Below, one piece after another: positions 1 to 33,961 of a DNA stretch of 64,000 nt (the stretch's first letter is position 1; every line of letters begins with the position of its first letter). A program made the position numbers and the translations under genes. Origin of the DNA: an uncultured Planctomycetales bacterium (GTDB taxonomy: Bacteria; Omnitrophota; Gorgyraeia; Zapsychrales; JAHFFX01); contig CAYXGG010000001.1 of NCBI GenBank assembly GCA_964464475.1, positions 23,174 through 87,173 of the forward strand, in the 5' to 3' direction. Below the pieces are notes generated by a model that saw only the letters and a program-made list of their open reading frames with translations, was not told the DNA's origin and made no database searches.

Positions 1-5
1 TTTAT

Positions 6-3000
6 ATGTGGGTTGAATCGGATAATGACCGGGTCGCTATTACGACCGGTGACGCGGCCACCTTGACCATTTATCGGCAAGATGGGTCAACCTCAGAAGC
101 TTCTTTAACAATGACCTTGGATGATACTAATGATTGGTGGAAATCCAATTCCTGGAACCCGTCTGACCCGCGGGACACTTACTTAGCCCGAGGTACCTGC
201 GAACAAGGAGTGAGTACCTACAACTTAACCACCGATGTGAATGTCGCTGCTCAGGCCGTTAACTGGACCGATATTTCCGACATTCGTACCAATATTGATA
301 AAGCCAATTGGGATGATTTAGGCGTTCTTACCAGTCAGGGAATTAATTGGAATGATTTGGCGAGTTTAACGACCGCTGCGGTCAATTGGCAGGATTTGGG
401 TGTGCTGACGACCCAAGGAGTTAATTATTCTGACTTTGGCGTACTGACGACGAGAGCGATCAATTGGGAAGATTTTAACGTGATGTCCATCCGCGGTGTT
501 AATTGGACGGATATCGCGGCGTTGCACGCGGTTGGCGTTAATTGGAATGATTTGTATTCATTGACCTCGGTGGCAGTCAACTGGGTGGATTTAGCCTTTA
601 TGACTTCCGCGGGGGTCAACTGGTCGGATATCGCTTATATGAGCGGATCCGGAACGAACTGGACGGCGAATGTCAATTGGGACTCGTTGGCGGAATTGAC
701 CAACGCGAGTGTTAACTGGAATGATATTTATTCCATGACTTCGAGAAACATTAATTGGGAAGATTTGAATGTCATGGCGTCCTTGGGGATTAACTGGACG
801 AATTATGCGGACATGACGCTGGTGGGAACTAATTGGAATGATATTAGTGTGTTGACCGCACGCGGTATTAACTGGAATGATGTGGGTGTTCTGACGAATT
901 TAGGCGCGAATTGGACTAACTTTGCCGATTTGACACTGGCTGGAACCAACTGGAATGATCTGACCGTCCTAACCTATGCCGCCGTCAACTGGGCTGATCT
1001 CTACGCGCTAACGACGGCCGGGGCTAACTGGAATGATTTGGGTGTTTTAACAACCGCCGGCGTGAATTGGAGTGATTTAACGGTACTCAGTCGCATTACG
1101 GTCAACTGGAATGATTTGAGTGTTTTAACGTCGCAGGGAGTTAACTGGAATGATCTCTCAACGTTAACAACCGTGGGGGTCAATTGGAACGATGTTAACG
1201 TCTTAACGACACGCGGCGTCAACTGGAACGATATTGGGATCATGACCACGCAAGGCGTTAATTGGAATGATATCAGTACCTTGACATCAACGGGCGTTAA
1301 TTGGAATGATTTAACTGTGTTGACCCGCGCGGGCGCTAATTGGGATGATTTGTATACCGTTTCTACTAAGGGGCTCAACTGGGATGAATTTCAAAGTATG
1401 ACCACCAAAGGAATTAACTGGAATAGCATCGCAGACATGTCGGCCGTCGGCGTTAACTGGAATGATATTGTTGTGCTGAGTTATGCGAGCGTTAACTGGG
1501 ACGGGATTCAGGCCATGTCGGTGGGAGGAGTTAATTGGAATGATTTAGGCACCATGTCCACGGCGGGTGTTAACTGGACGGGTATGTATGATTTGTCGGT
1601 GGCGAACACCAACTGGTCAGGTCTGAATGAGATGACCACCGCTGGCATTAATTGGACGGATGTAGGTGTTTTAAGTGCGCGCGGCATTAACTGGGATGGT
1701 ATCAATGAATTAAGCATCGGTCAGGTTAACTGGGACGGAATTCAAGCGTTATCTGTCGGGCTTGTCAATTGGACGGGTATTGCCGAGCTTTCTTATTCAG
1801 GGACAAACTGGACGGAGATTGATGTCTTGAGTCGCGCGCAGGTCAATTGGACCGGTATCCAGGATTTATCTTTTGGAGGCGTTAATTGGAATGATTTAAC
1901 GGTGTTGTCCCGCGCGGGCGCTAATTGGGATGATTTATCCGTTTTATCCGCGTCTGGCGTTAACTGGACCGATATTGACATTATGTCCGATGCCGGCGTT
2001 AACTGGAATGACCTTAGTGTTCTTACTTCTCGAGCCGTTAATTGGGAAGATCTGAACGTTATGACCACGCGGGGTGTTAATTGGGACGATTTGCAGGTGA
2101 TGAGCACTCGAGGCATTAATTGGGTCAGCTTGTACGACATGTCCGTGGCTAACATTAATTGGAATTCTTTAGAAGTTATGTCGACGTCCAACGTCAACTG
2201 GGTCGGCGTTTATGATATGTCGGCGTCAAACGTCAATTGGACGGGGATTTCCGAATTATCGATCGCCAATGTGAATTGGACCGGGGTCAATGAATTGACC
2301 GCGGCCGGTGTGAACTGGAACGATCTAGCCGTCTTTACCTCTGTCGGGACGAACTGGAATGATTTTAGCGTTATAACAAACACAGCTATTAACTGGACGG
2401 ATTTGGATTTGCTCTCCAAACAAGGGGTTAATTGGAACGATTTGGCGTCGATGACTAGCGCGGGCGTGAATTGGAATGATATTACAGTCTTGAGCCGTAC
2501 AGGCGTCAACTGGACTGGTATTTATGACATGTCGGTTTCTGGTGTAAATTGGGGAGGTATTCAGGATTTGTCCGTTGCCAATACGAACTGGACGGGGATT
2601 TATGATTTGTCCGTAGGTAACGTGAATTGGACGGGCATTCAATCGCTTTCGGAAGGTAACGTCAACTGGACTGATTTAGATGTTTTAAGTCGCTCCAATG
2701 TCAATTGGAATGATCTAACGGTCATGACGGCCACCGGGGTCAATTGGACCGGACTCAATGAATTAAGCGTGAGCGCTATTAATTGGACGGGGATTCAGGA
2801 CATGACGGCGGCCGGCGTTAACTGGAATGACCTTTCTGTTTTTAGTTACGCGCAAGTGAACTGGACTGAGATTGATAATTTAAGTCGCCAAGGAATCAAT
2901 TGGAATGATTTATCCGTTATGACGGCTTTGGGCGTGAACTGGACCAGTATCAATGATTTATCCAAAGCCGCTATTAATTGGGATGACATTACGGTGATGG

Positions 3001-6000
3001 GATACGCCGGCGTTAACTGGAATGATTTGTATTCGCTTTCAACAGCGAGTATTAATTGGAATGACTTTGCGGTTATGAATGCCACGGGGGTCAACTGGAG
3101 CGACTTAGATATTTTAAGCGAAGCGGGAATCAACTGGTTGGATATCGATGTGATGTCTCGTAATGGCGTTAATTGGAACGATTTGACTGTCATGACGCGC
3201 TCGGGTGTTAACTGGACCAATTTTTCTGACATGTCCGGGACCAACTGGACCAATATTAGTGATATGGCGGCGTCGGGGGTCAACTGGACCGGCTTTACTG
3301 ATCTATCAACGGCGGGGGTTAACTGGAATGACGTCGGGGTTATGTCATCTATCGGCGTCAATTGGAATGATTTGAACAGCTTGACAACGGCGGGGGTCAA
3401 CTGGAACGACCTGGAATCTTTAAGCAGAAAAGGCGTTAATTGGAATGATCTGGAAGTGATGTCCAATACCGGAATTAATTGGGATAATTTTTATGACATG
3501 ACCCAAGGTATTAATTGGAACAACATGTATGACTTGACTCGAGCGGGAGTTAATTGGAACGATTTGACGGTGATGACATCCTTGGGGGTTAATTGGAACG
3601 ATTTATATTCATTGTCTACGGTGGGAATTAATTGGAATGATATTGATGTCATGGCCAGAGCGGGGGTCAATTGGAATGATTTAAACTCTCTTGCCGCCGC
3701 AGGGGTGAACTGGACAGGCTTAAATGAAATTACGGTCTCCGGCGTTAACTGGAATGATATTAGTGTGCTGGCTGCGGCTGGTGTCAATTGGACGGACATT
3801 GATGTCATGAGTCGTACGAGTATTAACTGGGCGGAATTTTATACCTTAACGACTCAAGGCATTAATTGGGCGAGTATCGGTTCGATGACGACCGCAGGTA
3901 TCAACTGGAACGATATTGATACGTTAAGCCGTACGGGTGTGAATTGGGATGATTTGTACGCGCTGACCACGGCCACTATTAACTGGAATGATTTTAGCGT
4001 CATGACCAATACCGCGATCAACTGGTTGGATGTTGCCGTCATGCATAACTTGGGAGTCAATTGGTCTGACCTCGATGTGTTATCCCGGATCGGAATGAAC
4101 TGGAATGATTTGCAGGTCATTACTTCGACGGGAATCAACTGGGTGGATTTGGATATTTTAAGTGACGCTGGAGTCAACTGGGCGGACATTGATATCATGA
4201 GTGAGACGGGTATCAACTGGTCTGATTTAGACATTATGCATGACGCGGGGGTGAATTGGAATGACTTGGATGTGATGAGCGACGCGGGTGTTAATTGGAG
4301 TGATTTGACGGTGATGTCGCAGTCAGGGGTGAACTGGAACAATTTTTCACTGATGTCGGGCACTAATTGGACCAACATTAGTGATATGTCTCAGACATCC
4401 ATTAATTGGTACAGTATTGAAGAGATGTCCGGCGCGGGGGTCAACTGGAATAATTTTAGCGATATGGCGGGAGTCAGTATTAATTGGAATGACGTTGCCG
4501 TCATGGCGGCGACGGGTGTTAATTGGACCGATTTGGATATTCTGACCGAAGCCGGTGTTAACTGGAACGATTTGGATGCGCTGTCCAGAGCCGGTGTCAA
4601 CTGGAATGATTTGACGGTGATGAGTACCCGAGGGGTCAACTGGAACACGATTTATGACATGACGTCAGCGGGCATTAATTGGACGAATTTTGGGGACATG
4701 TCTTCTTCCAGTGTTAACTGGGATTCCATCGCCTTAATGGGATCTGCCAGCATTAACTGGGATGATTTTTATCTTCTGACGACTAAGGGTATCAACTGGG
4801 ACGATGTGGGACGCATGACCACAGTCGGCATTAACTGGAATGATATGACGGTTTTAACGCAAGCGGGTGTCAATTGGTCAGGATTAAATGAGTTAGCTGT
4901 ATCCAACGTTAACTGGACGGGTCTTCAAGATTTGTCGACGGCCAATGTCAATTGGAACGATTTGACTGTGTTAAGCTCGGCCGTTGTTAACTGGACGGAT
5001 TTGGCTGTCCTCTCTGAGTCGGGGGTCAATTGGAATGATCTCTCCGCGCTCAGCGTTGCGGGAGTGAATTGGAATGATATTAATGTTTTGTCTTCTCGGG
5101 GAATTAATTGGAATGATTTAGGTGTTTTAACTACTGCCGGGGCTAACTGGAATGACCTAACGGTGTTGACATCGGTTGGGGTCAACTGGAATGACCTGAC
5201 GGTCTTCTCTAATATGGGCATTAACTGGATTAATTATTCAGATTTAACAACGGCCGGAACAAATTGGTCGGACATAGAAGTGTTGTCTCGCGCTGGGGTT
5301 AATTGGAATGATTTGACTGTATTAGCTCAAGCGGGTGTCAATTGGACGGATTTAGATATTATGAGCGATGCGGGCGTTAATTGGGATGATTTGAATTCCT
5401 TGAGTCGAGCGGGAATTAATTGGTTGGAAATCGATACTTTGAGTCGCGCGGGGGTCAACTGGACGGGGCTAAATGAATTGGCGATTTCTAATGTGAATTG
5501 GACGGATCTTAATAGCATGACCACCGCCGGAGTGAATTGGGCGAGTCTATATGATCTTTCGGTCGCGGGTGTTAATTGGAATGATATCTCAGCCATGAGC
5601 TATCAAGGCGTTAATTGGAATGATTTTGGAGTCATGACGACTCAAACGATCAATTGGAATAATTTAACGGTAATGAGTAGCTCCGGTGTCAACTGGACGG
5701 ACATGGCTTACTTAACCACTTCGGGCGTTAACTGGGACAACATGAGCACCATGACCGGAGTCAACTGGACTAACGTTAGTGATATGGCGTCAGCCGGCGT
5801 TAACTGGGATAGTTTTGCGGAATTAGGAAGCGCTAATGTGAACTGGACCAACGTGAGTGACTTAAGTTATGCCGGGGTGAACTGGAATGATTTGGGTGCG
5901 ATGAGTGGGGCGGGTATCAATTGGACAGAAATTGATGTATTAAGTCGTGCCAGCGTCAACTGGACAGGCATTAATGATCTGTCCACGGCCGGCGTCAACT

Positions 6001-12000: not shown

Positions 12001-15000
12001 ATAATCTTTATGATTTGAGTGTGGCGGGGGTTAACTGGCATGATATTGATGTGATGACCAGAAACGGTATCAATTGGTTGGATATCGACATCATGGTCCG
12101 AGCGGGCATCAATTGGGGTGACCTTAGCGTTTTAACCGCTCAAGGGGTCAACTGGAACAACCTTTATGATTTGAGTGTCGCGGGAGTAAATTGGAATGAT
12201 TTTACCGTCATTACTAATACGGGTATCAACTGGCTGGATCTGCAAGTCTTAAGCGCTCAAGGCATCAACTGGTTAAATTTTGACGATCTTTCAAAGGCCG
12301 GTATTAACTGGACAGACATCAATACTTTGAGCAGCGCCGGTATTAATTGGTCCGATGTCAGTACTATGTCAGCAGCGGGAGTTAACTGGTTAGATATTGA
12401 TACGTTATCTAGGACGGGAATTAATTGGAGCGACTTAGATGTTTTAAGTGATACGGGAATTAATTGGGCGGAGATCGACGTGTTAAGTCGCACCGGCATC
12501 AATTGGAATGACATTCAAGTTTTATCGGCACAGGGCATGAATTGGGCGAGCTTAGATGAAATGACCAAGGCCGGGATTAACTGGCTGGATATTGAATCGA
12601 TGAGTGTTAAAGGAATTAATTGGAATGATATTCAAACGATGAGCGTTTTGGGTATCAATTGGAACAATATTGATGAATTGTCCAAAGCCGGTGTTAATTG
12701 GACAGACATTGATTTAATGAGTGATACCGGTATCAACTGGTATGACGTTGAGCGACTAAGCGCTGTCGGTATTAATTGGAGTGACTTGAATGTTATGTCC
12801 ACTCAGGGGGTTAACTGGTTGGACATTGAGCGCATGAGCAATAATGGGGTCAATTGGACGGACATTTCGCTCATGTCCGGATCTGGCATTAATTGGGCTA
12901 ACTTCGCAGATATGTCGGGGGTCAATTGGTCCAGCATCAGTGACATGGCGGCGGCGGGCATTAACTGGGATAGTTTTGCGGATGTAGCCAACGCGGGCAT
13001 TAATTGGGAAAACGTTGGGGTCATGTCTTACTCGGGCATTAACTGGAATGACCTAAGCGTGATGTCTACCACCGGCATGAATTGGCTGGATATTGAACGC
13101 ATGTCCGGAACCGGTATCAACTGGTATGACATCGAGACTTTAAGCGGCACAGGTATTAATTGGTTGGACATCGATATTATGTCGGATGCCGGCATTAACT
13201 GGGGTGATTTGGATGTGTTAAGTCGGGCTGGCGTTAACTGGGCTGATATCGATGTGATGACCGAGCAGGGCGTCAATTGGGCTAATGTTTATGACCTGAC
13301 GGTCGCGGGCATTAATTGGAATGATATCGATGCGTTGAGTCGTACCGGAATCAACTGGGATGATTTGGCTTATATGGCGAATTCGGGTGTCAATTGGTCG
13401 GACATGTCAACCATGTCGGCGAGCGGTGTCAATTGGAATGATATTGCCACACTTTCCGCGACCGGGATTAATTGGCTGGATTTCGACGTGATGAGCGATG
13501 CGGGTATTAATTGGGTTAGCGTCAATGATTTGTCGCAAGCCGGTATCAACTGGTTGGATTTACAAACCATGAGCGTCACGGGAATTAACTGGGGGGATTT
13601 TGGTGTCTTAAGCGCGGCGGGCGTCAACTGGTTAAATGTGGGTGAGATGAGTTCTTCAGGAGTTAATTGGTATGACATTCAGACGTTAAGCGCTGTCGGC
13701 ATTAACTGGAGTGATATTGGCGTCTTGAGCGCAACGGGCATTAACTGGTTAGATATCGATGTCTTGAGTGATATGGGCGTTAACTGGTCAAGTATAGATG
13801 AGCTTTCCAAAGCTGGAATTAATTGGACGGACATTGATACGCTAAGCGACGCCGGAGTGAACTGGAGTGATTTTGCTTCTTTGACCGCGGCGGGAATTAA
13901 TTGGATAGACATCGACGCTTTAAGTGATGCCGGTATCAATTGGTTGGACATTGAAATTTTAGGGTCGCGCGGGATCAATTGGAATGATTTATCAACGATG
14001 AGTGCGGCCGGAATTAACTGGTATGACGTGCAAACGCTAAGTGAAACCGGCATCAACTGGAGCGATATTGGGGTGTTAAGTTCTGCCGGTGTTAACTGGT
14101 CAGATTTGGATATCATGAGTGACACCGGCATCAACTGGTTAGATTTCCAATTTATGAGTGTTTCCGGCGTCAATTGGGCGGATTTGGACATTATGACCGA
14201 TGCCGGCATAAATTGGGCTAGCATGGAAGTGATGACCGCGTCTGGAATCAACTGGGTAAACTTTAGCGATATGTCTTTTGTGAATTGGTCCACGATCAGT
14301 GAAATGTCGGCCGCGGGCATCAATTGGGATAACATTGGGGTGATGGCGGCATCCGGCATTAACTGGGACGATATTGGCTCCATGACGACTTCGGGTGTCA
14401 ACTGGTTAAGTGTCGGAGATCTATCGGCAGCGGGAATCAATTGGAATGATATTGAAAAGATGAGCACGCAGGGCGTCAATTGGAATGATTTAAACGTGAT
14501 GGCTTCTGCCGGTATTAACTGGTCCGATTTCTCCGTGTTGACTCAGTCGGCTATTAACTGGCAGAATTTTGCCGAAATGTCGGGCATTAATTGGACGAGT
14601 ATCGGCGATATGGCGGCTGCGGGTATTAATTGGGATAATTTCTCCGACGTCGCTAACGCGGGGATCAATTGGGACAACATCGCGGAAATGTCGTATACCG
14701 GAGTGAACTGGTTTGACTTTGAACGTTTGTCAACCGCCGGTATCAATTGGAACGACGTTTTTGCCATGAGCTCGACAGGAATTAACTGGAATGATCTGAG
14801 CGTCTTCTCCACCACGGGTGTCAATTGGAATGACATTTACACCATATCAACAACCGGTATCAATTGGTTTGATATCGAATCCATGAGTAACATGGGTGTC
14901 AATTGGACGGACTTGGACATTATGAGTGACGCCGGTGTGAATTGGGCGGACATTCAGATGATGGGGACGCTGGGCGTCAATTGGACTGATTTAAGTACTA

Positions 15001-18000
15001 TGACGGCCAGTGGTGTTAATTGGTCAGATTTTGGCGTTCTTACCTCCAGCAACATTAACTGGCAGAATTTTGCCGATATGTCATCGGTCAACTGGGCTAG
15101 TATTAGTGATATGGCGTCTGCGGGTATTAATTGGGACAATTTTGCGGACGTTGCTAACGCAGGTGTCAATTGGGATAACGTGGGTGTCATGACGTATTCG
15201 GGTATCAACTGGTACGACATGGGGGTCATGACGGGTGGCGGCATTAACTGGTTGGACGTCAGTACATTAAGCACCGAAGGCATCAACTGGACTGATTTGG
15301 ATACCATGACGGATGCGGGTATCAACTGGGCTGACCTGCAGACGCTTACCGTTATGGGCATTAACTGGTCGGATTTGGATGTGATGTCTGATTCAGGCAT
15401 TAACTGGAACGATATTTCTCGTCTCGCCGGTGTGGGCATCAATTGGGAAAATATTTATACGATGTCGACTGTTGGGATCAACTGGAATGATTTTGAAACT
15501 ATGTCGAACATCGCCATCAACTGGCAGAATTTTGCCGAAATGTCGGGGATCAACTGGGCAAGTATCGGCGACATGGCTGCTGCCGGTATTAACTGGGATA
15601 ATTTTTCCGACGTCGCGAACTCCGGAATCAACTGGTATGAGATCGCGGTGATGGCGGATTCTGACGTAAATTGGAACGACTTAGGCGAAGTCACGGCCGC
15701 GGGTATTAATTGGTCGGACTTCTCGGTCATGAGTAATACGGGCGTCAACTGGATCAATATTGGCGATCTTTCCGGCGCGGGCATTAACTGGTTGGAAATT
15801 GATACGATCAGTCAGACAGGTATCAACTGGAATGATCTACAGGCGTTGACCACCGCTAATATTAATTGGAATGATCTTAACGTGATTTCCACTCAAGGCA
15901 TTAATTGGTTTGATCTGCAAGTGATGAGCGTGGCACAAATTAACTGGACGGATCTACAATCCATGTCGTCGATTGGTATCAACTGGCAAGATATTAATGT
16001 GATGAGCCAGGCGGGTATTAATTGGGCGGATGTTGATGTGTTATCTGAAATAGGCATCAATTGGGATGACCTTCAATCCCTTTCAACGACGGGGATTAAT
16101 TGGGCCGATTTGGATGTGATGTCGGATGCCGGGATCAATTGGGCCGCTTTAGAGTATATGTCGGCCAGTGGCGTGAACTGGTATGACATTTCGTATATGT
16201 CAACGTCCGGTGTCAACTGGACGGACATGAATACCATGACGACCATCGGCGTTAATTGGGCCAATTTTGGGGACATGTCCGGCGTCAACTGGGCGAGTAT
16301 TAGTGATATGGCGTCAGCGGGTATTAATTGGGATAACTTCGCCGGTGTTGCTAACGCAGGGGTCAATTGGGATAACGTCGGCGTGATGTCTTATTCAGGA
16401 ATTAATTGGGATGATATTGGGACTATGTCCACTGTCGGTGTCAACTGGTCGGACATTCAAATCATGTCGGACGCCAGCGTGAATTGGCTTAATTTTGCCG
16501 ACTTGTCCGGCGTTAATTGGACCAGCATTGGAGAAATGGCTTCCGCCGGGATTAATTGGGACAATTTTGCCGACGTCGCTTCCGCCGGCATTAATTGGGA
16601 TGGCGTCGGTGCCATGGCCAGCGCGGGCATTAATTGGGAAGATATTGGTACTATGTCCGTCCAGGGAATCAATTGGGCTGATTTTTACGGCCTCAGCACC
16701 TCTCAAATTAATTGGTATGAGCTCGAGAACATGAGTAATGTGGGCATTAATTGGACGGACTTAAGCACGATGACCAATGTGGGCGTCAACTGGTTTGATA
16801 TTGATCTCATGAGTGATTCGAATGTGAATTGGTCAAACTTTTCAGAAATGTCTGGCGTGAATTGGGCAAGTATCGCGGAAATGGCGTCCGCGGGAATCAA
16901 TTGGGACAATTTTTCTGACGTGGCGAACGCGGGTATCAACTGGGATAACGTTGGCGTTATGTCTTACGCGGGTGTTAATTGGTCAGATATGGCAGAATTA
17001 ACCGGCGCGGGTATTAATTGGACGGATCTCAATCGCGTTTCTGAAACCGGAATCAATTGGAGTGATTTTGGAGTTTTGTCTACGACCGGTATCAATTGGG
17101 AAGATATTGGTTCGATGTCGACCAGCGCGATCAATTGGGGTGGTCTGCAAGACATGACGTCATCCAACATTAACTGGTTGGATATTGAATTTTTAAGCAC
17201 GCAAGGCATTAATTGGAGCGCCTTGGGCGATATCGCGAACGCCGGAGTCAACTGGTCGGATATTGAAGTGATGAGTTCGTTGGGGATCAACTGGAGTGAT
17301 TTGGATGTTCTTTCCGATGCTGGCGTCAATTGGGCGGATCTGAGCACCATGAGCGCCAATGGCATCAACTGGGCCAATATTTACGATTTGTCCTCCACCG
17401 GCATCAATTGGGATGGAATTGACCAAATGAGTCGCTCCGGTGTCAACTGGGAAAACATCGGTGACCTTTCGATCGCCGGTGTCAATTGGTTTGATATTGA
17501 ATCCATGTCCTCCAAGGGAATCAATTGGACTGATTTTGGAACGTTAAGTGAATCGGGTATTAATTGGTTAGACATCGGTGCTCTGTCGGATGCCGGCGTC
17601 AACTGGACGGATTTGGATATTATGAGCGATGCGGGAGTTAATTGGGCTGAATTTGAAGTCATGAGTAAGGCTGCCGTCAACTGGGACAATTTCTCTAATA
17701 TGTCGAATATCAATTGGGCCAGTATCGGGGAGATGGCCGCGGCAGGGATTAATTGGGATAGCTTCGCAGATGTCGCGAATGCGGGTATCAATTGGGAAAA
17801 TGTCGGGGTGATGTCCTACGCGAGCGTGAACTGGAATGATTTAGGCGCTTTGAGCACCGCGGGGGTCAACTGGAATGACCTGTCTTACATGACCAGCGTG
17901 AGCGCTAACTGGGAGAATTTCTCAGAGATCTCGGGGGTCAACTGGTCTAGTGTTGGCGAAATGGCTTCTGCGGGTATCAACTGGGATAATTTTTCAGACG

Positions 18001-20141
18001 TCGCTAACGCCGGTATTAACTGGGATTCGGTGGCCTACATGGCAGAAGCGGGTGTTAACTGGAATAATATTAGTACTATGGCCAGTTCGGGCATCAATTG
18101 GTATGACATTGAATTCATGAGCAATAATGGCATTAATTGGGATGATTTAAATTACTTAACGACTTTGGGTGTTAATTGGGATAGTTTTTATTCTATGTCC
18201 GCGTCGGGTATCAATTGGACGGATATTGACCGCATGACGGATACCGGAATTAACTGGGAAGATTTTAGTGTTTTCTCTGCCGCCGGCATCAACTGGGATA
18301 ACTTTGCTTTAGCTTCTGGAACCAACTGGGGAAGCATTGCTGACATGGCATCGGCGGGTATTAACTGGGATAATTTTAGCGGAGTCGCGAACGCCGGTGT
18401 CAACTGGGACAATGTCGGGGTCATGTCTTATGCCGGTGTTAATTGGGATGATATTAGTTCCATGTCCAACACCGGGGTCAACTGGGATGACATTGAAACA
18501 TTAAGTAGCTCAGGAGTCAATTGGTCTGAGTTAAACGTATTCTCGACCTCAGGAATCAACTGGAGCGATATCCATGTTCTTACGGCCTCGGCGATTAATT
18601 GGACTAATATTGGAGATATGTCTGCAACGGGTATCAACTGGCTAGATATTGGTCAAATGTCTTCATCCGGCATAAATTGGAACAGTCTCTCGGTGATGTC
18701 CGACGCAGGCATTAATTGGTACGATATTGAAACGATGACCACGGCGGGAGTTAACTGGACCGATTTCTCCCAATTGTCGGGTGCGACTATCAATTGGGAC
18801 AATCTCGATGTCCTCACGGATGCAGGTGTCAATTGGGATGGTTTTGGTGAAATCAGCTCGGCTGGTATTAACTGGCTCAATATGGGCGCCATGACCGAAG
18901 CTAACGTGAATTGGGAAAACTTGGCTGAGAACTCGTCGGTGAACTGGACGAACGTCTCTGACATGGCTGCCGCGGGCGTTAATTGGGAAAGTTTCTCGGA
19001 CATTGCTGCGTCAGGAGTCAATTGGGACAATATTTCTTACATGAGCGAGTCGGGTGTCAATTGGCAAAATGTTGGGGAATTGAGTTTGTCCGGCATCAAT
19101 TGGCAGGAAATTGAATCCTTGTCGGTGGCGGGCATTAATTGGAGTGATATTACCCAAATGACCGTTCAAAATATTAACTGGGCAGATTTGAATACATTAA
19201 CGACTTCCGGGGTCAACTGGGCGGATCTTTCTTACATGAGTTTTAGTGGTATTAACTGGGTGGATATGTCTAACTCCTCTCGCGCCGGTATCAATTGGCA
19301 AGACATCGCGAACATGAGCAATGCTAATGTCAATTGGGCGGGTATTGAGTATTTAGCGAATAATGCCCAGTCTTTGATCACGAATATTAATTCGATTCTA
19401 ACCGTTGTTAATAGTTTAAATACGAAGATGGGTGAATTAGCCGACACCACGTCCAGCAATAGTTTGTTTGGTAAAGTCGCTCAGATTTATCAAGAAGTTC
19501 AGAATTTGGCCGGTGGCGGTGTCAGCAACATTGAGTCCATCGTGACGGCTATGCAGACTAAGCTGGGAGCAGCTACCGATGCCAGCAATTCCAATACGGT
19601 TTTTGGAGACTTACAATCAATCCAGGATTATGTCGATACGCTGGAAACTTTAGTCGGCGTCACCACGGATACCTCGACGGATACCATTTTTGGTCAATTA
19701 AGCGGCATGCCGGAAATTAGAGAAAATGTTTCTAAAGCTAAAAGCGGCGCGAACGCGGCCTTGGGCGAAGCTCAGGAAATCCGTAAAGAAATCGGCGCCA
19801 AAGGTGAGACTCCGGCGCTCTATGAACGCGTGAAGCGACTGGAAAATATGCTCAAAGAATTGCAGGGCTTGTCGGAAAAGATCGCTCAAAGTAAGGTCAG
19901 CTCGGGTGGTTTAACGACAGAGATTCTAGAGATGCTGACGAATCTGGTGGAAAAAAGCGCGAAAGCGTTAGGTTTGTCCGGGGAAGCGATTAAGATTTCA
20001 CCGTTGAAACCTGGCGAAGAAGAGGATCTGTCCAACGTTAACGAAAAATTGGATGAAATCCGCGCTAAGACGGATCTTCTGAAGGAAGCGGCTGAGGCCG
20101 AGAATGTCGTCGTCAAGAGCTGGTTTGAAAGCGGTGAGTAA
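6..20141 (+). CDS. Giant tandem-repeat protein, more than 6,700 aa visible. The frame is open to the window's first base, so the 5' end is probably partial. It consists of about 490 tandem 13-residue units (G-V/I-N-W-N/T/S/D-D/G-L/I/F-x-x-L/M-S/T-x-x) plus a C-terminal alpha-helical or coiled-coil domain of roughly 260 aa. A likely role is a cell-surface fibre or adhesin.
   Basis: A single uninterrupted frame runs for 20.1 kb with 39-nt periodicity. The invariant Gly/Val/Asn/Trp are encoded by varying synonymous codons (ggc/ggg/ggt/gga; gtc/gtt/gta/gtg; aac/aat, with tgg fixed), which indicates selection at the protein level. The stop is TAA at 20139-20141. No recognisable known domain family was found. 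A hydrophobic periodicity (positions 3, 5, 8, 11) with an invariant Asn suggests beta-solenoid rungs; this is inference. Confidence 0.85.
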   Translation: MWVESDNDRVAITTGDAATLTIYRQDGSTSEASLTMTLDDTNDWWKSNSWNPSDPRDTYLARGTCEQGVSTYNLTTDVNVAAQAVNWTDISDIRTNIDKANWDDLGVLTSQGINWNDLASLTTAAVNWQDLGVLTTQGVNYSDFGVLTTRAINWEDFNVMSIRGVNWTDIAALHAVGVNWNDLYSLTSVAVNWVDLAFMTSAGVNWSDIAYMSGSGTNWTANVNWDSLAELTNASVNWNDIYSMTSRNINWEDLNVMASLGINWTNYADMTLVGTNWNDISVLTARGINWNDVGVLTNLGANWTNFADLTLAGTNWNDLTVLTYAAVNWADLYALTTAGANWNDLGVLTTAGVNWSDLTVLSRITVNWNDLSVLTSQGVNWNDLSTLTTVGVNWNDVNVLTTRGVNWNDIGIMTTQGVNWNDISTLTSTGVNWNDLTVLTRAGANWDDLYTVSTKGLNWDEFQSMTTKGINWNSIADMSAVGVNWNDIVVLSYASVNWDGIQAMSVGGVNWNDLGTMSTAGVNWTGMYDLSVANTNWSGLNEMTTAGINWTDVGVLSARGINWDGINELSIGQVNWDGIQALSVGLVNWTGIAELSYSGTNWTEIDVLSRAQVNWTGIQDLSFGGVNWNDLTVLSRAGANWDDLSVLSASGVNWTDIDIMSDAGVNWNDLSVLTSRAVNWEDLNVMTTRGVNWDDLQVMSTRGINWVSLYDMSVANINWNSLEVMSTSNVNWVGVYDMSASNVNWTGISELSIANVNWTGVNELTAAGVNWNDLAVFTSVGTNWNDFSVITNTAINWTDLDLLSKQGVNWNDLASMTSAGVNWNDITVLSRTGVNWTGIYDMSVSGVNWGGIQDLSVANTNWTGIYDLSVGNVNWTGIQSLSEGNVNWTDLDVLSRSNVNWNDLTVMTATGVNWTGLNELSVSAINWTGIQDMTAAGVNWNDLSVFSYAQVNWTEIDNLSRQGINWNDLSVMTALGVNWTSINDLSKAAINWDDITVMGYAGVNWNDLYSLSTASINWNDFAVMNATGVNWSDLDILSEAGINWLDIDVMSRNGVNWNDLTVMTRSGVNWTNFSDMSGTNWTNISDMAASGVNWTGFTDLSTAGVNWNDVGVMSSIGVNWNDLNSLTTAGVNWNDLESLSRKGVNWNDLEVMSNTGINWDNFYDMTQGINWNNMYDLTRAGVNWNDLTVMTSLGVNWNDLYSLSTVGINWNDIDVMARAGVNWNDLNSLAAAGVNWTGLNEITVSGVNWNDISVLAAAGVNWTDIDVMSRTSINWAEFYTLTTQGINWASIGSMTTAGINWNDIDTLSRTGVNWDDLYALTTATINWNDFSVMTNTAINWLDVAVMHNLGVNWSDLDVLSRIGMNWNDLQVITSTGINWVDLDILSDAGVNWADIDIMSETGINWSDLDIMHDAGVNWNDLDVMSDAGVNWSDLTVMSQSGVNWNNFSLMSGTNWTNISDMSQTSINWYSIEEMSGAGVNWNNFSDMAGVSINWNDVAVMAATGVNWTDLDILTEAGVNWNDLDALSRAGVNWNDLTVMSTRGVNWNTIYDMTSAGINWTNFGDMSSSSVNWDSIALMGSASINWDDFYLLTTKGINWDDVGRMTTVGINWNDMTVLTQAGVNWSGLNELAVSNVNWTGLQDLSTANVNWNDLTVLSSAVVNWTDLAVLSESGVNWNDLSALSVAGVNWNDINVLSSRGINWNDLGVLTTAGANWNDLTVLTSVGVNWNDLTVFSNMGINWINYSDLTTAGTNWSDIEVLSRAGVNWNDLTVLAQAGVNWTDLDIMSDAGVNWDDLNSLSRAGINWLEIDTLSRAGVNWTGLNELAISNVNWTDLNSMTTAGVNWASLYDLSVAGVNWNDISAMSYQGVNWNDFGVMTTQTINWNNLTVMSSSGVNWTDMAYLTTSGVNWDNMSTMTGVNWTNVSDMASAGVNWDSFAELGSANVNWTNVSDLSYAGVNWNDLGAMSGAGINWTEIDVLSRASVNWTGINDLSTAGVNWTDMGVMSSTGVNWTEIDVLSRSGVNWTGINDLSTSGVNWTDVGLLSSAGVNWNDLSVLTSTGVNWADLDIMSDATINWADLDIMHDAGINWEDFQVLTSRGVNWNDLDVLSRANVNWTGINEMSIAGVNWTGINDLSTAGVNWTDLGVLSTASVNWNDLTVMTSLGINWTDMGVMSSSGVNWVNFNEMSGVNWTNLGEMSTSGLNWNDLTVMSYSGVNWDSFGAMSTAGINWNDIGTLSSAGVNWTEIDVLSRAGVNWSGLNDLSVAGVNWNDLSVMSSVGVNWTEIDVLSRAGVNWTGINDLSTAGINWTDVGLLSSAGVNWNDLTVLTSAGVNWADLDIMSDASINWADLDIMHDAGVNWDDLQSMSTRGVNWTDIDVLSRANVNWTGINELSVAGVNWVGMQDLSIAGVNWTDIGVMGATGINWTDWDVMTRAGINWNDLSSMSASGVNWANFSTMSGVNWTSISEMASAGINWDNFADIAAAGVNWDNVSVMSYSGINWNDFGVMSSSSINWTEIDVLSRAGVNWVGVNDLSLAGVNWNDLSVMSGVGVNWTEIDVLSRAGVNWTGINDLSAAGINWTDMGVLSAAGINWTDIDVLSRTAINWNDLTAMTTTGVNWADLNYLTNLGLNWNDIQVMSSRGINWDDWTVLSRAGVNWDDFNRLSSSGMNWEDIQVMTTRGINWTDVDTLSEAGINWLGVQDLSVGGVNWLGMQDLSIAGVNWNDLNVMSTSVINWTDFGVMSVAGVNWTDMSVMTQAGVNWSNFSTMSGVNWTSIGEMASAGVNWDNFADVANAGVNWDNVGVMTYAGVNWNDLGSMTSANINWTELDVLSRAGVNWVGVNDLAAAGVNWNDLSVMSAVGVNWTEIDVLSRAGVNWTGINELSSAGVNWTDLGVLSGVGINWFDLDVLSRTGVNWSDLDVMSDASINWNDFQALSSTGINWNDLTVMSAQGVNWTEIDVLSRSGVNWTGIQDLSLGGVNWTDLGTLTAAGINWNDLNALSTTGVNWNDLDVLSRAGINWQDMTVMTSSGVNWSNFSTMSGVNWTSIGEMASAGINWDNFADVAAAGVNWDNIGVMTYAGINWNDMSLMSSIGVNWNDLQVMTSQGVNWTSFNDLTVAGINWTDMGSMTTAGINWNDLDTLSRTGVNWTGINELSVAGVNWTDIGVLSAAGVNWTDLDVLSRTGVNWLDLGTMSGAGINWSDLDIMHDAGINWTDMDVMSRSAVNWASFGEMSGVNWTSIGDMASAGVNWDNFADVANAGINWDNVGIMTYAGVNWTEISTLSAAGVNWNDLSVLTGVGINWNDITVMSSLGMNWYDLGVMAAIGVNWSDLDVLTKSGVNWTNFTEMSTAGINWASVSDMSGVNWNNITEMSVSGINWSDIDVLSRSGINWNDISALASTGINWLDLDIMSDAGINWNDMQALTNAGVNWNDINVLSTMGVNWSNLYDMTTFGINWLDIDALSRAGINWTDIQTMSTTGVNWTDIDVLSDAGVNWSELDVITRIGINWNDLQSLTAAGVNWLDIGQMSSIGINWTDIQAMSTTGVNWTSIYDMSVTGINWLDIDVMSDAGVNWSSVSDLSSAGVNWNDIDALSRTGINWNDLGTLSAAGINWMDIGVLSTTGINWIDIDILSDAGINWADLDILSDTGINWADIEVMGRTNINWSDIGSLSTAGVNWNDIDALSRTGINWADLNTLTTQGINWANVYDLSTAGINWAEIDTLSRAGVNWADLQTMSVAGVNWLSFEVMSSVGVNWNDLAVMHASGINWQDFTTMTTAGVNWDNFVGMSGVNWGSIADMASAGINWDSFSEVSAAGVNWDNIGVMAGVGINWNDISSLSSSGVNWNDIQTLSSSGVNWTNFTEMSTAGINWASVSDMSGVNWNNITEMSTAGINWNDIDVLSRTGVNWANMYEMSTMGINWADIDVMSDMGVNWYDIERMSTVGLNWQDLDIMSDAGINWNDLQSLSNAAINWSDLDIMTEAGVNWNDISAMSSLGVNWNNLYDLSVAGVNWHDIDVMTRNGINWLDIDIMVRAGINWGDLSVLTAQGVNWNNLYDLSVAGVNWNDFTVITNTGINWLDLQVLSAQGINWLNFDDLSKAGINWTDINTLSSAGINWSDVSTMSAAGVNWLDIDTLSRTGINWSDLDVLSDTGINWAEIDVLSRTGINWNDIQVLSAQGMNWASLDEMTKAGINWLDIESMSVKGINWNDIQTMSVLGINWNNIDELSKAGVNWTDIDLMSDTGINWYDVERLSAVGINWSDLNVMSTQGVNWLDIERMSNNGVNWTDISLMSGSGINWANFADMSGVNWSSISDMAAAGINWDSFADVANAGINWENVGVMSYSGINWNDLSVMSTTGMNWLDIERMSGTGINWYDIETLSGTGINWLDIDIMSDAGINWGDLDVLSRAGVNWADIDVMTEQGVNWANVYDLTVAGINWNDIDALSRTGINWDDLAYMANSGVNWSDMSTMSASGVNWNDIATLSATGINWLDFDVMSDAGINWVSVNDLSQAGINWLDLQTMSVTGINWGDFGVLSAAGVNWLNVGEMSSSGVNWYDIQTLSAVGINWSDIGVLSATGINWLDIDVLSDMGVNWSSIDELSKAGINWTDIDTLSDAGVNWSDFASLTAAGINWIDIDALSDAGINWLDIEILGSRGINWNDLSTMSAAGINWYDVQTLSETGINWSDIGVLSSAGVNWSDLDIMSDTGINWLDFQFMSVSGVNWADLDIMTDAGINWASMEVMTASGINWVNFSDMSFVNWSTISEMSAAGINWDNIGVMAASGINWDDIGSMTTSGVNWLSVGDLSAAGINWNDIEKMSTQGVNWNDLNVMASAGINWSDFSVLTQSAINWQNFAEMSGINWTSIGDMAAAGINWDNFSDVANAGINWDNIAEMSYTGVNWFDFERLSTAGINWNDVFAMSSTGINWNDLSVFSTTGVNWNDIYTISTTGINWFDIESMSNMGVNWTDLDIMSDAGVNWADIQMMGTLGVNWTDLSTMTASGVNWSDFGVLTSSNINWQNFADMSSVNWASISDMASAGINWDNFADVANAGVNWDNVGVMTYSGINWYDMGVMTGGGINWLDVSTLSTEGINWTDLDTMTDAGINWADLQTLTVMGINWSDLDVMSDSGINWNDISRLAGVGINWENIYTMSTVGINWNDFETMSNIAINWQNFAEMSGINWASIGDMAAAGINWDNFSDVANSGINWYEIAVMADSDVNWNDLGEVTAAGINWSDFSVMSNTGVNWINIGDLSGAGINWLEIDTISQTGINWNDLQALTTANINWNDLNVISTQGINWFDLQVMSVAQINWTDLQSMSSIGINWQDINVMSQAGINWADVDVLSEIGINWDDLQSLSTTGINWADLDVMSDAGINWAALEYMSASGVNWYDISYMSTSGVNWTDMNTMTTIGVNWANFGDMSGVNWASISDMASAGINWDNFAGVANAGVNWDNVGVMSYSGINWDDIGTMSTVGVNWSDIQIMSDASVNWLNFADLSGVNWTSIGEMASAGINWDNFADVASAGINWDGVGAMASAGINWEDIGTMSVQGINWADFYGLSTSQINWYELENMSNVGINWTDLSTMTNVGVNWFDIDLMSDSNVNWSNFSEMSGVNWASIAEMASAGINWDNFSDVANAGINWDNVGVMSYAGVNWSDMAELTGAGINWTDLNRVSETGINWSDFGVLSTTGINWEDIGSMSTSAINWGGLQDMTSSNINWLDIEFLSTQGINWSALGDIANAGVNWSDIEVMSSLGINWSDLDVLSDAGVNWADLSTMSANGINWANIYDLSSTGINWDGIDQMSRSGVNWENIGDLSIAGVNWFDIESMSSKGINWTDFGTLSESGINWLDIGALSDAGVNWTDLDIMSDAGVNWAEFEVMSKAAVNWDNFSNMSNINWASIGEMAAAGINWDSFADVANAGINWENVGVMSYASVNWNDLGALSTAGVNWNDLSYMTSVSANWENFSEISGVNWSSVGEMASAGINWDNFSDVANAGINWDSVAYMAEAGVNWNNISTMASSGINWYDIEFMSNNGINWDDLNYLTTLGVNWDSFYSMSASGINWTDIDRMTDTGINWEDFSVFSAAGINWDNFALASGTNWGSIADMASAGINWDNFSGVANAGVNWDNVGVMSYAGVNWDDISSMSNTGVNWDDIETLSSSGVNWSELNVFSTSGINWSDIHVLTASAINWTNIGDMSATGINWLDIGQMSSSGINWNSLSVMSDAGINWYDIETMTTAGVNWTDFSQLSGATINWDNLDVLTDAGVNWDGFGEISSAGINWLNMGAMTEANVNWENLAENSSVNWTNVSDMAAAGVNWESFSDIAASGVNWDNISYMSESGVNWQNVGELSLSGINWQEIESLSVAGINWSDITQMTVQNINWADLNTLTTSGVNWADLSYMSFSGINWVDMSNSSRAGINWQDIANMSNANVNWAGIEYLANNAQSLITNINSILTVVNSLNTKMGELADTTSSNSLFGKVAQIYQEVQNLAGGGVSNIESIVTAMQTKLGAATDASNSNTVFGDLQSIQDYVDTLETLVGVTTDTSTDTIFGQLSGMPEIRENVSKAKSGANAALGEAQEIRKEIGAKGETPALYERVKRLENMLKELQGLSEKIAQSKVSSGGLTTEILEMLTNLVEKSAKALGLSGEAIKISPLKPGEEEDLSNVNEKLDEIRAKTDLLKEAAEAENVVVKSWFESGE
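250..19350 (+). repeat. Coding tandem-repeat array with a 39-nt (13-codon) unit and occasional 33-nt (11-codon) units. A recurring conserved block of about 135-150 nt punctuates the array, and there are longer near-identical super-repeats of roughly 0.8 kb.
   Basis: The motif ...GVNWNDL(S/T)VL(T/S)xx... recurs with 13-aa spacing through the whole ORF. Nucleotide strings such as ggggtcaactggacgg and gttaattggaatgatttg recur hundreds of times. The reverse strand is also largely open in two frames, as expected for a strict periodic repeat. Confidence 0.9.
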
Positions 20142-20159: not shown

Positions 20160-21506
20160 ATGAATTTCTTTGCGATTACCCGACCTAGACGGTTGATCGT
20201 AAGCATGATCCTGGTCATGATGCTGCTATCCTGCCGGGACGCGTTTGCCTCGATCTACATTAATTTGGTGGCGGCTAATGCCTCACCGGATAAAGTGCGT
20301 GAACTTCCCTTTAAGTACTTCCTTCCTAGAGAATTGAAGCCCGATGATATTTTGGACACGGCCGGCTTGCAGATTGATTATGATATCGATCAGAAGTCTT
20401 ATTTTGTTTATGGAACACTGACGATGCAGCCGCAAGAATCACGCGTTTTAAAAATCGAAGTGAGGGATGTCTGGAAGGTGACTGATGAGGAAATCAGTCG
20501 TCTCAAGAAAGAAGTCGATGATCATTTGGTCCGAACGCAGAATACACCTTATCATGATCGGGCTTCGGTTTTAAAACAGGATATTAACCGAAAATTGGAT
20601 TATATTGTCGAGCAACAAGAAAACTATTCCGGTAACGTTGAGCGTCGCATTGAAGAGTATCGGGCGTACACCGAAGTCATCGCGCAGGTGCGTAAAGATA
20701 TTTTTTCGATCGAGAACTGGGAATCTGTGCAGGCAAAAATGCCGATCACACAGTCTCCTTTGGAAAATAAGACCGTCAAGTTTGTCCTTGAAGTAGAAAA
20801 TCCGCGGAAAGATATCGAAAAGACTTTAAAGCAACAGCACTATCTTCCGATGGAAGTCCTTTCCGAACATATTATTGACTCACGTGGTTTTGACATCCGT
20901 TTTGATGAGAAAAAGCAGCAGACGTATCTCTTTAAGGAAGAATTGTTTCAGCCGGGAGAGAAGAAACGTTACGAAATTATTATTCAGGACATTTGGTATA
21001 TTCCTGAAGACAAGACCAAAGGTTTTACCGAACGCGCGGATACGGCTATGAATGAGTTGCAGGGAACGGATTATGAAAATAGCGCGAAGTATCTTTTTGA
21101 TCAGATTAATCAAGGTATAAAAGGTGTGATTGAGCTGCAAGAGCGCAGCGTCAGCATGAAGGAACATGTAGGCGCTTTCCGTATTAATAAAGACACCATG
21201 AAGACTACTGAGGATCAGCTTTTGCAATTAGAGAGGATCCTGGCTTTGGTTCGGCAAAAACGATTGGAAGAATTGGAGAAAAGTCGGGTTAAGAATATCT
21301 TAAAGAAGATTCAGTCTCTGGATGGCATTAACGCGATCGCGCAGCAATTATTTAAACAAAAACTTTCCATTAATAAGACTTGGAAGATCATTATTGCTAT
21401 TTTAAGTTTTGTAGCCGTCTTCACTGCTTTTCATTTTCTGGTTTGGAAAAAGCGTTCTCGTGACGCGCGCCGACGTCAAGCCCAGCAAAAAGCACAACCT
21501 GCCTAG
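20160..21506 (+). CDS. Hypothetical exported coiled-coil protein with a C-terminal transmembrane anchor (448 aa). It is co-oriented with the giant gene and starts 18 nt downstream of its stop.
   Basis: The N-terminal hydrophobic segment RRLIVSMILVMMLLSCRDAFA resembles a signal peptide with a cleavage site near AFA. The central part is charged and coiled-coil-like. The C-terminus has a hydrophobic helix (WKIIIAILSFVAVFTAFHFLVW) followed by the basic tail KKRSRDARRRQAQQK. No family was recognised. Confidence 0.6.
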   Translation: MNFFAITRPRRLIVSMILVMMLLSCRDAFASIYINLVAANASPDKVRELPFKYFLPRELKPDDILDTAGLQIDYDIDQKSYFVYGTLTMQPQESRVLKIEVRDVWKVTDEEISRLKKEVDDHLVRTQNTPYHDRASVLKQDINRKLDYIVEQQENYSGNVERRIEEYRAYTEVIAQVRKDIFSIENWESVQAKMPITQSPLENKTVKFVLEVENPRKDIEKTLKQQHYLPMEVLSEHIIDSRGFDIRFDEKKQQTYLFKEELFQPGEKKRYEIIIQDIWYIPEDKTKGFTERADTAMNELQGTDYENSAKYLFDQINQGIKGVIELQERSVSMKEHVGAFRINKDTMKTTEDQLLQLERILALVRQKRLEELEKSRVKNILKKIQSLDGINAIAQQLFKQKLSINKTWKIIIAILSFVAVFTAFHFLVWKKRSRDARRRQAQQKAQPA

Positions 21507-23196: not shown

Positions 23197-23214
23197 TCGA
23201 ATTAAATAGTCGGC

Positions 23215-23520: not shown

Positions 23521-23522
23521 TC

Positions 23523-23747: not shown

Positions 23748-23754
23748 CCCATAA

Positions 23755-23994: not shown

Positions 23995-24032
23995 AATATG
24001 GTCAATCATTCATCAAATCTAAGGAGACAGCG

Positions 24033-24803: not shown

Positions 24804-24818
24804 AGGCGGACAATCTAC

Positions 24819-27162
<2,344 letters not shown>

Positions 27163-29369: not shown

Positions 29370-29382
29370 CCAATTAAAGTCT

Positions 29383-30591: not shown

Positions 30592-30592
30592 G

Positions 30593-31414: not shown

Positions 31415-31427
31415 TCAACTAAAAGGA

Positions 31428-31853: not shown

Positions 31854-31854
31854 A

Positions 31855-32277: not shown

Positions 32278-32289
32278 CCATAACTATCC

Positions 32290-33959: not shown

Positions 33960-33961
33960 CC

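Follow-up and report, generated by a model that had tools for sequence, protein, structure and literature searches.

The 64,000-nucleotide (nt) stretch of DNA analysed here (the window; contig CAYXGG010000001.1, positions 23,174 to 87,173) comes from an uncultured bacterium of Omnitrophota lineage and begins inside a giant open reading frame (ORF), nearly all of which encodes tandem copies of a 13-residue unit with the core G-[VI]-N-W. Comparison of this ORF with its relatives indicates that the product is most likely a Sec-exported, non-membrane, very acidic fibrous protein of an undescribed Omnitrophota family. From domain architecture and gene neighbourhood alone we judge, with modest confidence, that it acts as a length-tunable surface tether or adhesin stalk, and the attachment-fibre role proposed in an earlier reading of the letters (the sequence-only reading) fits both the family architecture and the neighbouring genes. 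Giant, poorly annotated Omnitrophota ORFs that adjoin secretion and pilus genes are already known. What is new is the 13-residue unit and the family that it defines, the head-array-tail plan, an obligate partner protein and a fixed position beside F-type ATPase and type IVa pilus (T4aP) genes.

The frame was described as open at its 5' end across 20.1 kb, and this is what we find. The parts of the giant gene are as follows.

nt 3 to stop at 20139-20141, forward strand (frame 3): giant-protein ORF of 6,712 codons with one terminal stop, open at its 5' end
3..251, forward strand: C-terminal part of the head domain (amino acids (aa) 1-83), non-repeat; the 5' end of the gene lies outside the window
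252..19361, forward strand: complete G-[VI]-N-W array of 493 units, 13 aa each, of which 23 are of 11 aa
5700..9900, forward strand: zone of higher-order repeats, 271-aa blocks of 21 units, one of them of 11 aa
8238..8438, forward strand: an example of the punctuation module, ~50 aa with an 11-aa unit, consensus sgvNW.NFs.MSGVNWtsI.dMAsAGINWDnF.dvanAGvNWdnvgvMsy
19362..20141, forward strand: non-repeat C-terminal domain of ~260 aa, helical bundle(s), ending VVVKSWFESGE and then the stop

Upstream of nt 3 the window contains no in-frame stop in frame 3. Homology allowed us to place the left edge of the window within the gene. Window residues 1-60 (YMWVESDN..., YMWVESDNDRVA) align with residues 202-260 of a complete 868-aa homolog, P0008, and thus the ATG at nt 6 is internal rather than a start codon. 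The array opens in the window with an irregular, conserved segment, VNWTDISDIRTNIDKANWDDLG, and the N-terminally complete relative P0007 opens likewise with INWTDITSIRDNVNQANWADLG; the first units of the window array also align with the first units of P0008 and P0007. Because this conserved opening is common to the window and P0007, the whole array lies inside the window. By homology with P0008, the missing N-terminal part would amount to ~200-250 residues, giving a full-length protein of ~6,900-7,000 aa of which the window ORF would represent roughly the last 97%. The suggestion that the real gene might be much larger still is therefore not borne out, since the window already holds the start of the array and ~85 aa of the head.

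An ORF of this size and regularity could arise from a chimeric assembly, a collapsed repeat or a non-coding satellite that is open by chance, and the short-read assemblies of relatives do break or frameshift within such arrays. However, we regard an artefact as almost inconceivable here. A six-frame check over the 20 kb showed a single open frame, with the other five closed. Conserved residues are written with mixed synonymous codons (Asn as AAC 248 times and AAT 245 times, Gly spread over all four codons), adjacent units share on average 56% and at most 79.5% DNA identity, exact direct DNA repeats reach no more than 51 bp over the 20 kb, and Tandem Repeats Finder reported short arrays alone, with 63-86% matches. 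For the most similar 271-codon super-repeats, the Nei-Gojobori method gave a proportion of synonymous differences (pS) of ~0.70 (dS ~2, saturated), a proportion of nonsynonymous differences (pN) of 0.18-0.39 and dN/dS ratios of 0.10-0.26. The saturated synonymous sites and low dN/dS indicate that the array is old and that its protein is under purifying selection, in agreement with the sequence-only reading, which had taken it for a selected protein and not a satellite. Together with the low DNA identity between units, the saturation also means that the array is not prone to assembly collapse. Moreover, the same architecture, with conserved array start and end, recurs in many independent assemblies: in relatives the array at the same locus stays open for at least 5,610, 3,271 and 2,890 aa, and five 8-kb tiles from relatives show no interruption and 205 units apiece, one of them coming from a 3.36-Mb Omnitrophota chromosome and another from a 1.34-Mb contig.

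The regularity of the array is high. Between aa 87 and 6444 there are 493 N-W dipeptides, spaced by 13 aa in 465 cases, by 11 aa in 23 and by other values in four. The lone 26-aa gap corresponds to one unit with N-Y in place of N-W, so that N-W is found in 493 of ~494 units, as expected from the near invariance claimed for Asn and Trp. A profile built from the 465 regular units reads [AST]-G-[VI]-N-W-[NTDS]-[D>NSG]-[ILFV]-x-x-[ML]-[STA]-x. Numbering the unit from 0, position 0 is A, S or T; position 1 is G (86%); position 2 is V or I (95%); positions 3 and 4 are N and W; position 5 is N, T, D or S; position 6 is D (63%) or else N, S, G or E; position 7 is I, L, F, V or M; position 10 is M or L (92%); and position 11 is S, T or A (97%). 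The earlier description of a 13-aa G-[VI]-N-W unit thus stands, with 465 of 493 regularly spaced, while its statement that the Gly is essentially invariant was slightly overstated.

The 6,373-aa array contains no Cys and no Pro, 12.9% Asn and 7.8% Trp. It carries 712 Asp plus Glu against 97 Lys plus Arg, with an isoelectric point (pI) of ~4.05 and a net charge of about -615. This composition is of extracellular type and counts in favour of a surface fibre. An acidic residue is needed at unit position 6 or position 9, in i/i+3 compensation, and the combination D6 plus E9 was observed twice where 25 cases are expected. No hydrophobic stretch long enough to span a membrane is present in the 6,712 aa (no 19-residue window exceeds a mean Kyte-Doolittle value of 1.6).

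Above the level of the unit, the 271-aa blocks, located around aa 1,900-3,300, reach identities of 53-62% in protein and 75% in DNA. They produce an autocorrelation peak at a lag of 271 aa (813 nt), with run lengths of 21, 21, 24 and 21. The residue that precedes the Asn is preferentially Val in the N-terminal half of the array and Ile in the C-terminal half, a gradient that indicates array growth through local block duplication. We detected no two- or three-unit super-period, the identity being flat over lag at 0.29-0.33, and per-position identities showed no clear lag preference save for a rise at lag 2 for position 10. The 11-residue units are confined to the punctuation module, which is present in 23 copies between aa 1070 and 6303. 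These copies lie 76-466 aa apart and become denser toward the C-terminus, and close relatives have one (L126). The module may represent a register shift, a hinge or a binding site. At the DNA level, the coding-strand GC skew (over window positions 1-20000) is 0.18-0.31 in the giant gene and 0.08-0.22 elsewhere, and long antisense ORFs overlap the array, for example at 6284-7477 (397 aa); both are probably by-products of the periodic codons GGN, GTN, AAY, TGG and GAY.

Comparison with the relatives reveals a common layout: a signal peptide, a variable head, the G-x-N-W array and a conserved C-terminal helical-bundle domain that ends VVVK[ST]W[FY]E. The window protein shows the array start, the units, the VVxK[ST]W[FY]E tail and a downstream partner of ~450 aa that define this family. 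The complete proteins P0008 (868 aa), P0013 (900 aa) and P0034 (2,809 aa) each have one N-terminal hydrophobic, signal-like segment (MSKQGLKLNTPNHRRIFLVLGAFGVFGFIVSQALAQ in P0008) and no further transmembrane (TM)-like segment; P0036 (1,292 aa), as called, is without an N-terminal hydrophobic segment. The heads differ from protein to protein, being unannotated and beta-rich in P0008, P0013 and the window, whereas P0034 and P0035 carry Ig_Rha78A_N and P0036 carries Laminin_G_3. The tails share 42-54% identity among relatives, contain internal D-T-S...T-V-F-G-x-L motifs, finish with a near-invariant VVVKSWFE and are modelled confidently by AlphaFold as helical bundles. In the middle, the unit counts run from 33 (P0008) through 42, 78, at least 202 and at least 232 to 493, a variation of ~15-fold in copy number among orthologs at one locus.

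The strong negative charge and the required acidic residue at unit position 6 or 9, which suggests cation binding, could also be expected of a polyanionic surface layer, sheath or cation-binding matrix laid down in many copies, rather than of a tipped adhesin. We consider such a coat improbable. The placement of a variable head and a conserved tail around the array is as in a polar fibre with unlike ends, the 15-fold copy-number range is typical of stalks and spacers, and no S-layer or SLH-type domains were detected.

We next describe the distribution of the family. We searched 1.84 billion representative proteins with a profile built from 85 five-unit segments. It matched 425 of them at E ≤ 1e-3, including 39 at E ≤ 1e-30; most are fragments, and the longest have 2,809, 2,304 and 1,292 aa. 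A DNA scan of one genome per species for four AAYTGG at intervals of 39 nt identified at least 57 loci in which 10 or more units are in register, almost all of them in Omnitrophota metagenome-assembled genomes (MAGs) or in bins labelled as members of the Planctomycetes-Verrucomicrobia-Chlamydiae (PVC) group. Among the loci listed, 24 are labelled Candidatus Omnitrophota (or Omnitrophota genera) and 23 are bins labelled "uncultured Planctomycetales/Planctomycetia"; among the remaining loci listed are three short contigs made wholly of repeats, which are probably mis-binned. One contig of 4.3 kb, binned as Gastranaerophilales (L037, JAQUYY010000182.1), consists entirely of G-x-N-W units whose acidity is far lower and in which position 9 is often Pro (LKPLTE); this binning is probably wrong, and the contig a piece of an Omnitrophota genome. 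The named homologs of the array and of the partner are almost all from Omnitrophota, one partner homolog being labelled Elusimicrobia, which bears out the link between this giant repeat ORF and Omnitrophota drawn in the sequence-only reading. No family members were found among IMG/VR viral contigs, and hence no phage link. Four IMG/VR contigs (L138, L177, L145 and L153) contain unrelated 13-residue N-W repeats, comprising GASFNWGKAPKVE arrays and Asn/Ser/Thr-rich arrays of the form ...NTNQNSNMTNWS...

The unit also corresponds to no named repeat family, as had been supposed. The Pfam scan, at E ≤ 0.01, covered residues 1-1,086 of the window protein, its C-terminal 256 aa and six relatives. The one match to a repeat of the same length, Lysostaphin_N (PF25533, a 13-residue repeat), scored 52.7 bits on a 1,000-aa segment against a cut-off of 60, with no single stretch passing, and 27-32 bits on relatives; it is spurious and reflects the common period of 13, not homology. 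Matches to Ntox33, BNR_6, 2-Hacid_dh and DUF families were sub-threshold or without a stretch that passes by itself, and were put down to periodicity or composition. Choline-binding, ChW, pentapeptide, YD and ice-nucleation repeats were absent from this Pfam scan. An NCBIfam scan of head, array and tail yielded nothing above threshold, and sequence searches of the PDB gave nothing meaningful for a segment, for the unit and tail profiles or for the partner, the best match of the unit profile being a tandem myc-tag. A full-text literature search for the motif returned no relevant mention of the 13-residue unit, nor did the Omnitrophota papers compared here. A recent preprint reports 137 long proteins without any database match.

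The giant gene is followed on the same strand by its partner gene and by two gene clusters.

20160..21506, forward strand: partner gene, 448 aa, starting 18 nt past the stop of the giant ORF; AGGAA site resembling a ribosome-binding site, no terminator between
21622..27162, forward strand: F-type ATPase operon in the order alpha, epsilon, c, c-like 79-aa hairpin, b/delta fusion, gamma, beta
27165..37021, forward strand: type 4 pilus (T4P)- and type II secretion system (T2SS)-like genes, namely PilB/GspE, PilC/GspF, an MA-family peptidase, three pseudopilin-like genes (N_methyl, T2SSJ, T2SSK), PilM/PilN, a T2SSM-like gene and a TPR protein

The partner begins with a segment that resembles a signal or lipoprotein peptide, continues with two regions of beta-rich plus helical character and ends in a C-terminal TM helix and a basic tail. 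Its 88 homologs are 380-495 aa long save for one 329-aa fragment, and no relative was found in Pfam, NCBIfam or the PDB; an identical copy (100%) of the window partner, P0165, is in the protein database. In every locus examined (~25 loci) the partner adjoins a G-x-N-W gene, with partner identities down to 24%, and the order tail domain, partner, ATPase is kept in ~25 loci from different MAGs. For example, one relative (L122) has the order secretin, TPR, two FGE-sulfatase genes, the 868-aa G-x-N-W gene, partner, ATPase, PilB and PilC, and the array versions of at least 2,890, 3,271 and 5,610 aa hold the same position in ortholog loci. The equivalent of the upstream region of L122 falls just outside the window. 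FGE-sulfatase-family (PF03781) genes, one or two in number, lie directly upstream of the G-x-N-W gene in L122 (6796-9991) and on the P0013 contig.

The ATPase operon has an unusual gene order, which is common to three relatives (L122, L124 and L126). Directly after the c subunit gene, at 23755-23994, is a gene for the c-like 79-aa two-helix protein, which has a membrane Glu. The operon abuts the PilB, PilC, pilin and PilMN genes (27165-36192), and the two therefore lie within the distance of 10 kb or less between ATPase and T4aP genes that marks the "symbiotic F-type ATPase/T4aP locus". That locus was proposed to function in attachment and motility on host cells, and the source describes Omnitrophota cells of ~0.2 micrometres and notes giant ORFs separately from the locus (PMC10066038). 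The repeat protein and its partner receive no mention in the passages searched in that account of the locus. In other work, T2SS/T4P-like genes were reported to adjoin Omnitrophota giant ORFs that were proposed to be adhesins (bioRxiv 10.1101/2023.11.21.568195). The PilB/GspE-type ATPase of the window (27165-29369) contains an N-terminal MshEN and a C-terminal PilZ, both cyclic di-GMP-binding modules, which suggests second-messenger control of the pilus or secretion motor.

From this architecture and neighbourhood we infer a surface location, an orientation, anchoring by the partner, an export route and an adhesive role for the protein. In the mechanism we propose, the fibre would be exported by Sec through its N-terminal signal peptide, and the surrounding T4P/T2SS-like genes would be candidates for its passage across the outer membrane. 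The conserved tail would form the cell-proximal end, docked on the co-conserved single-pass membrane partner, and the variable head would form the distal, ligand-facing end that meets host or prey cells. Between the two, the array would serve as a spacer, the length of which evolves by block duplication. More speculatively, the negative charge and the conserved Asn and Asp residues may point to cation-dependent folding outside the cell.

Several observations weigh against a tether or adhesin stalk of this kind. The head in the window has no Pfam family and no recognisable binding domain. The protein lacks any known anchor motif (no LPXTG, beta-barrel, type I secretion system (T1SS) signal or TM segment), and anchoring by the partner is drawn from gene adjacency only. 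A T2SS exports folded proteins, and a rod of 0.1-0.5 micrometres would suit it poorly as cargo. The adjacency of the ATPase operon could reflect a role more active than that of a passive tether, or mere conservation of gene order. Finally, two AlphaFold runs disagree on the fold of the stalk, one giving a beta-helix and the other short helices.

The same neighbourhood is compatible with a protein that is not retained but released, exported by the adjacent T2SS-like system into the medium or onto prey. The components of such a system are at hand (a secretin upstream in L122, with E, F and pseudopilin genes downstream) and the orthologs have Sec-type signal peptides. Nevertheless, a protein that stays on the cell is suggested by the strictly co-conserved, membrane-anchored partner and by the conservation of the C-terminal domain, and no enzymatic or toxin domain was detected; we thus view release as very unlikely.

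The proximity of the ATPase operon raises the alternative of an active appendage, in which the fibre and its partner would be the output element (a "leg" or tether) of machinery driven by the F-type ATPase, the T4P motor or both. The analogy is with the atypical F1-like ATPases of mycoplasmas, which power gliding through giant leg proteins, or the MIB-MIP system, at the cell surface. The gene order through PilC is kept over deep divergence (AtpA 51-76% identical, partner 24-64%), and the operon at 21622-27162 is without a gene for the "a" subunit while it has the extra c-like hairpin. The description of the locus places its alpha-subunit clade with the Mycoplasma type-2/3 ATPases, alongside the proposed role in attachment and motility (PMC10066038), and F-like ATPases that serve surface-protein systems provide a precedent (PMC12994834, PMC3369863). 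By contrast, the alpha subunit of the window is strongly canonical by sequence, scoring 454 bits to solved F1 alpha chains with no Mycoplasma F1-like chain among the top 60 (phmmer), and the c subunit has kept its carboxylate, so that the complex may be an ordinary ATP synthase with its "a" subunit encoded elsewhere. One relative (L081, JAYSWD010000059.1) has no ATPase operon at this point, PilB/GspE-PilZ coming immediately after the tail domain and partner, so that the pair may be linked more closely to the pilus genes than to the ATPase. In addition, the fibre has no sequence similarity to Gli proteins. Taken with these points, a powered appendage seems to us unlikely, and a passive tether or stalk remains the reading that we prefer.

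How the tether or stalk would be built depends on the fold of its units. Units of 13 residues, as short repeats in tandem-repeat proteins, cannot fold independently, and the array must thus form one continuous elongated repeat structure. The sequence-only reading had considered a beta-solenoid with one unit per rung. In one AlphaFold run the array did form a beta-helix, with a pLDDT score (predicted local distance difference test) of 70.5 and a strand pattern with a period of ~26 residues, equivalent to two units per rung. The rungs of this model mostly comprise a 10-residue strand alternating with a 3+5 kinked strand, and the model superposes on helices with 20-26 residues per coil. By contrast, an AlphaFold2 run on the last 11 units plus the tail, using a 10-sequence alignment, modelled each unit as a helix of nine residues, from W4 to position 12, and a loop of four, x-G-[VI]-N, with low pLDDT values of 37-52 for the units. 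For the unit, the hydrophobic moment is highest at 120-130 degrees and the conservation moment at 100-110 degrees, with both close to their minimum at 170-180 degrees, indicating that the sequence periodicity favours capped helices. The hydrophobic staple, the capping box and the Schellman motif are helix-capping motifs. In the unit, [VI]-N-W-x-D-[LIF] would correspond to a hydrophobic staple plus capping box, and [LM]-[ST]-x-x-G-[VI] to a Schellman motif. AlphaFold2 has been documented to over-predict beta-solenoids for repeats (PMC11795689). Some points also speak against helices: Asn, Ser, Gly, Asp and Thr abound in the array, position 8 is Gly in 17% of units, and one relative has Pro at unit position 9. 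A salt-bridge test did not discriminate, as D8-R12 pairs are enriched but D8-D12 pairs are too, and the coupling was taken to reflect unit subtypes. The beta-solenoid idea thus has one AlphaFold run of moderate confidence in its favour and the second run and the helical periodicity against it. A single unit per rung is contradicted by the beta model itself, which shortens the estimated rod from the ~0.2 micrometres of that reading to ~0.12 micrometres. The estimated lengths of the array are as follows.

beta-helix with two units per rung: ~0.12 micrometres
beta-helix with one unit per rung: ~0.24 micrometres
stack of short helices: up to ~0.5 micrometres

Depending on the fold, the fibre would thus measure 0.1-0.5 micrometres, on the scale of a ~0.2-micrometre cell. 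A bolder joint claim, which we put forward as a long shot, combines two readings that do not exclude one another: that the unit represents a new class of fold and that the fibre and its partner form the mechanical output of the ATPase/pilus machinery. In the new fold, the array would be a solenoid of minimal capped helices in which every conserved residue has a capping function, producing a single-chain fibre of up to ~0.5 micrometres. The Gly would be the Schellman C' residue, the Val/Ile both C'' and the N' residue of the staple, and the Asn the N-cap; the Asp would be N3 of the capping box, Leu7 the N4 residue of the staple and Leu/Met10 would be C3. As mechanical output, the pair would amount to a "leg" driven by ATP or to a retractable tether, by means of which a nanobacterium of 0.2 micrometres might hold or move on its host, the number of repeats tuning the length of the stalk.

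We compared the protein with known systems. The Archaeovorin- and Dockerin-type giant ORFs of Omnitrophota (bioRxiv 10.1101/2023.11.21.568195, PMC10066038) share with it the phylum, a long repeat-rich ORF and T2SS/T4P neighbours, and such ORFs have been proposed to mediate adhesion to host or prey. The Archaeovorin type has many TM segments, SecA-DEAD and HEAT/TPR/enzyme domains, whereas the scanned protein has none of these, and in contrast to the Dockerin type neither the window protein nor the six relatives gave a Dockerin_1, EF-hand or TSP3 match in the Pfam scan. Unlike either type, the G-x-N-W protein consists almost entirely of one 13-residue unit, has small orthologs (868-900 aa) and comes with a dedicated partner. 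At its core, [VI]-N-W-x-D-[LIF]-x-x-[LM], the unit resembles the second half of the dockerin calcium loop and the start of its helix (V-N-x-x-D-L-x-x-L). However, it has no counterpart to the first half of that loop, and its length is 13 residues as opposed to ~22-24.

Fibrillar adhesins of the RTX type (Marinomonas MpIBP, LapA) provide a closer parallel in overall plan, with a head, stalk and tail, a variable number of stalk copies, an acidic and Cys-poor composition and a length on the scale of the cell. The stalk unit differs, being 13 residues instead of an immunoglobulin (Ig)-like domain of ~100 residues, as do the N-terminal Sec signals of the orthologs. RTX and T1SS marks (GGxGxDxUx nonapeptides, a C-terminal T1SS signal) were not seen: there was no HemolysinCabind or other RTX match in Pfam, and the neighbouring genes are those of T4P/T2SS and an ATPase, not those of an ATP-binding cassette transporter and membrane fusion protein (ABC/MFP). 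As regards the marks of fibrillar adhesins as a class, the stalk is present, lectin- or Ig-type heads occur in paralogs or orthologs but none is recognisable in the window, and the tail plus partner would supply the anchor. Right-handed parallel beta-helix passengers (TpsA adhesins such as EtpA/HMW1, autotransporters, tailspikes) and the curli beta-solenoid CsgA show no sequence similarity to the protein, which also has no two-partner secretion (TPS) domain, barrel or PbH1 match. The gliding proteins Gli349 and Gli521 of Mycoplasma mobile with their F1-like ATPase, and the MIB-MIP system with its type 3 F1-like X0 ATPase, share with it a giant surface protein, a small host-dependent bacterium and a link to an ATPase cluster. 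They differ in that there is no homology and that the ATPase here has c and b/delta subunits and a canonical sequence.

The Omnitrophota are widespread, uncultured, host-dependent nanobacteria, the giant ORFs of which have often been noted but are functionally opaque. Against this background the G-x-N-W family is tractable, as its 13-residue unit is simple and sharply conserved and its small complete orthologs (868-900 aa) are open to expression and structural work. It also has a dedicated partner and a fixed place in an ATPase/type 4 pilus locus proposed for host attachment. The 15-fold range of copy number at one orthologous locus constitutes a natural experiment on fibre length versus lifestyle. 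In addition, the unit may prove to be a new repeat fold and provides a useful test case for the bias of AlphaFold toward beta-solenoids.

Two further features of the window are of note. An STT3-family oligosaccharyltransferase gene is located at 37018-39714 on the reverse strand, 17 kb downstream. N-W-[ST] sequons (N-x-S/T) occur in 155 units, and the array contains no PglB-type D/E-x-N-x-S/T sequons; the fibre could be heavily N-glycosylated, or the co-occurrence of STT3 and sequons could be coincidental. A Cus-like heavy-metal efflux set of the resistance-nodulation-division (RND) type lies at 43396-52010 and comprises an OEP protein, an HlyD protein with a heavy-metal-binding domain and an AcrB-family protein. 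The TolC-like OEP and the RND pump indicate that the cell has a diderm envelope. The set is followed by genes for YHS/TRASH metal-binding proteins and an ArsP-type permease, pointing to metal handling.

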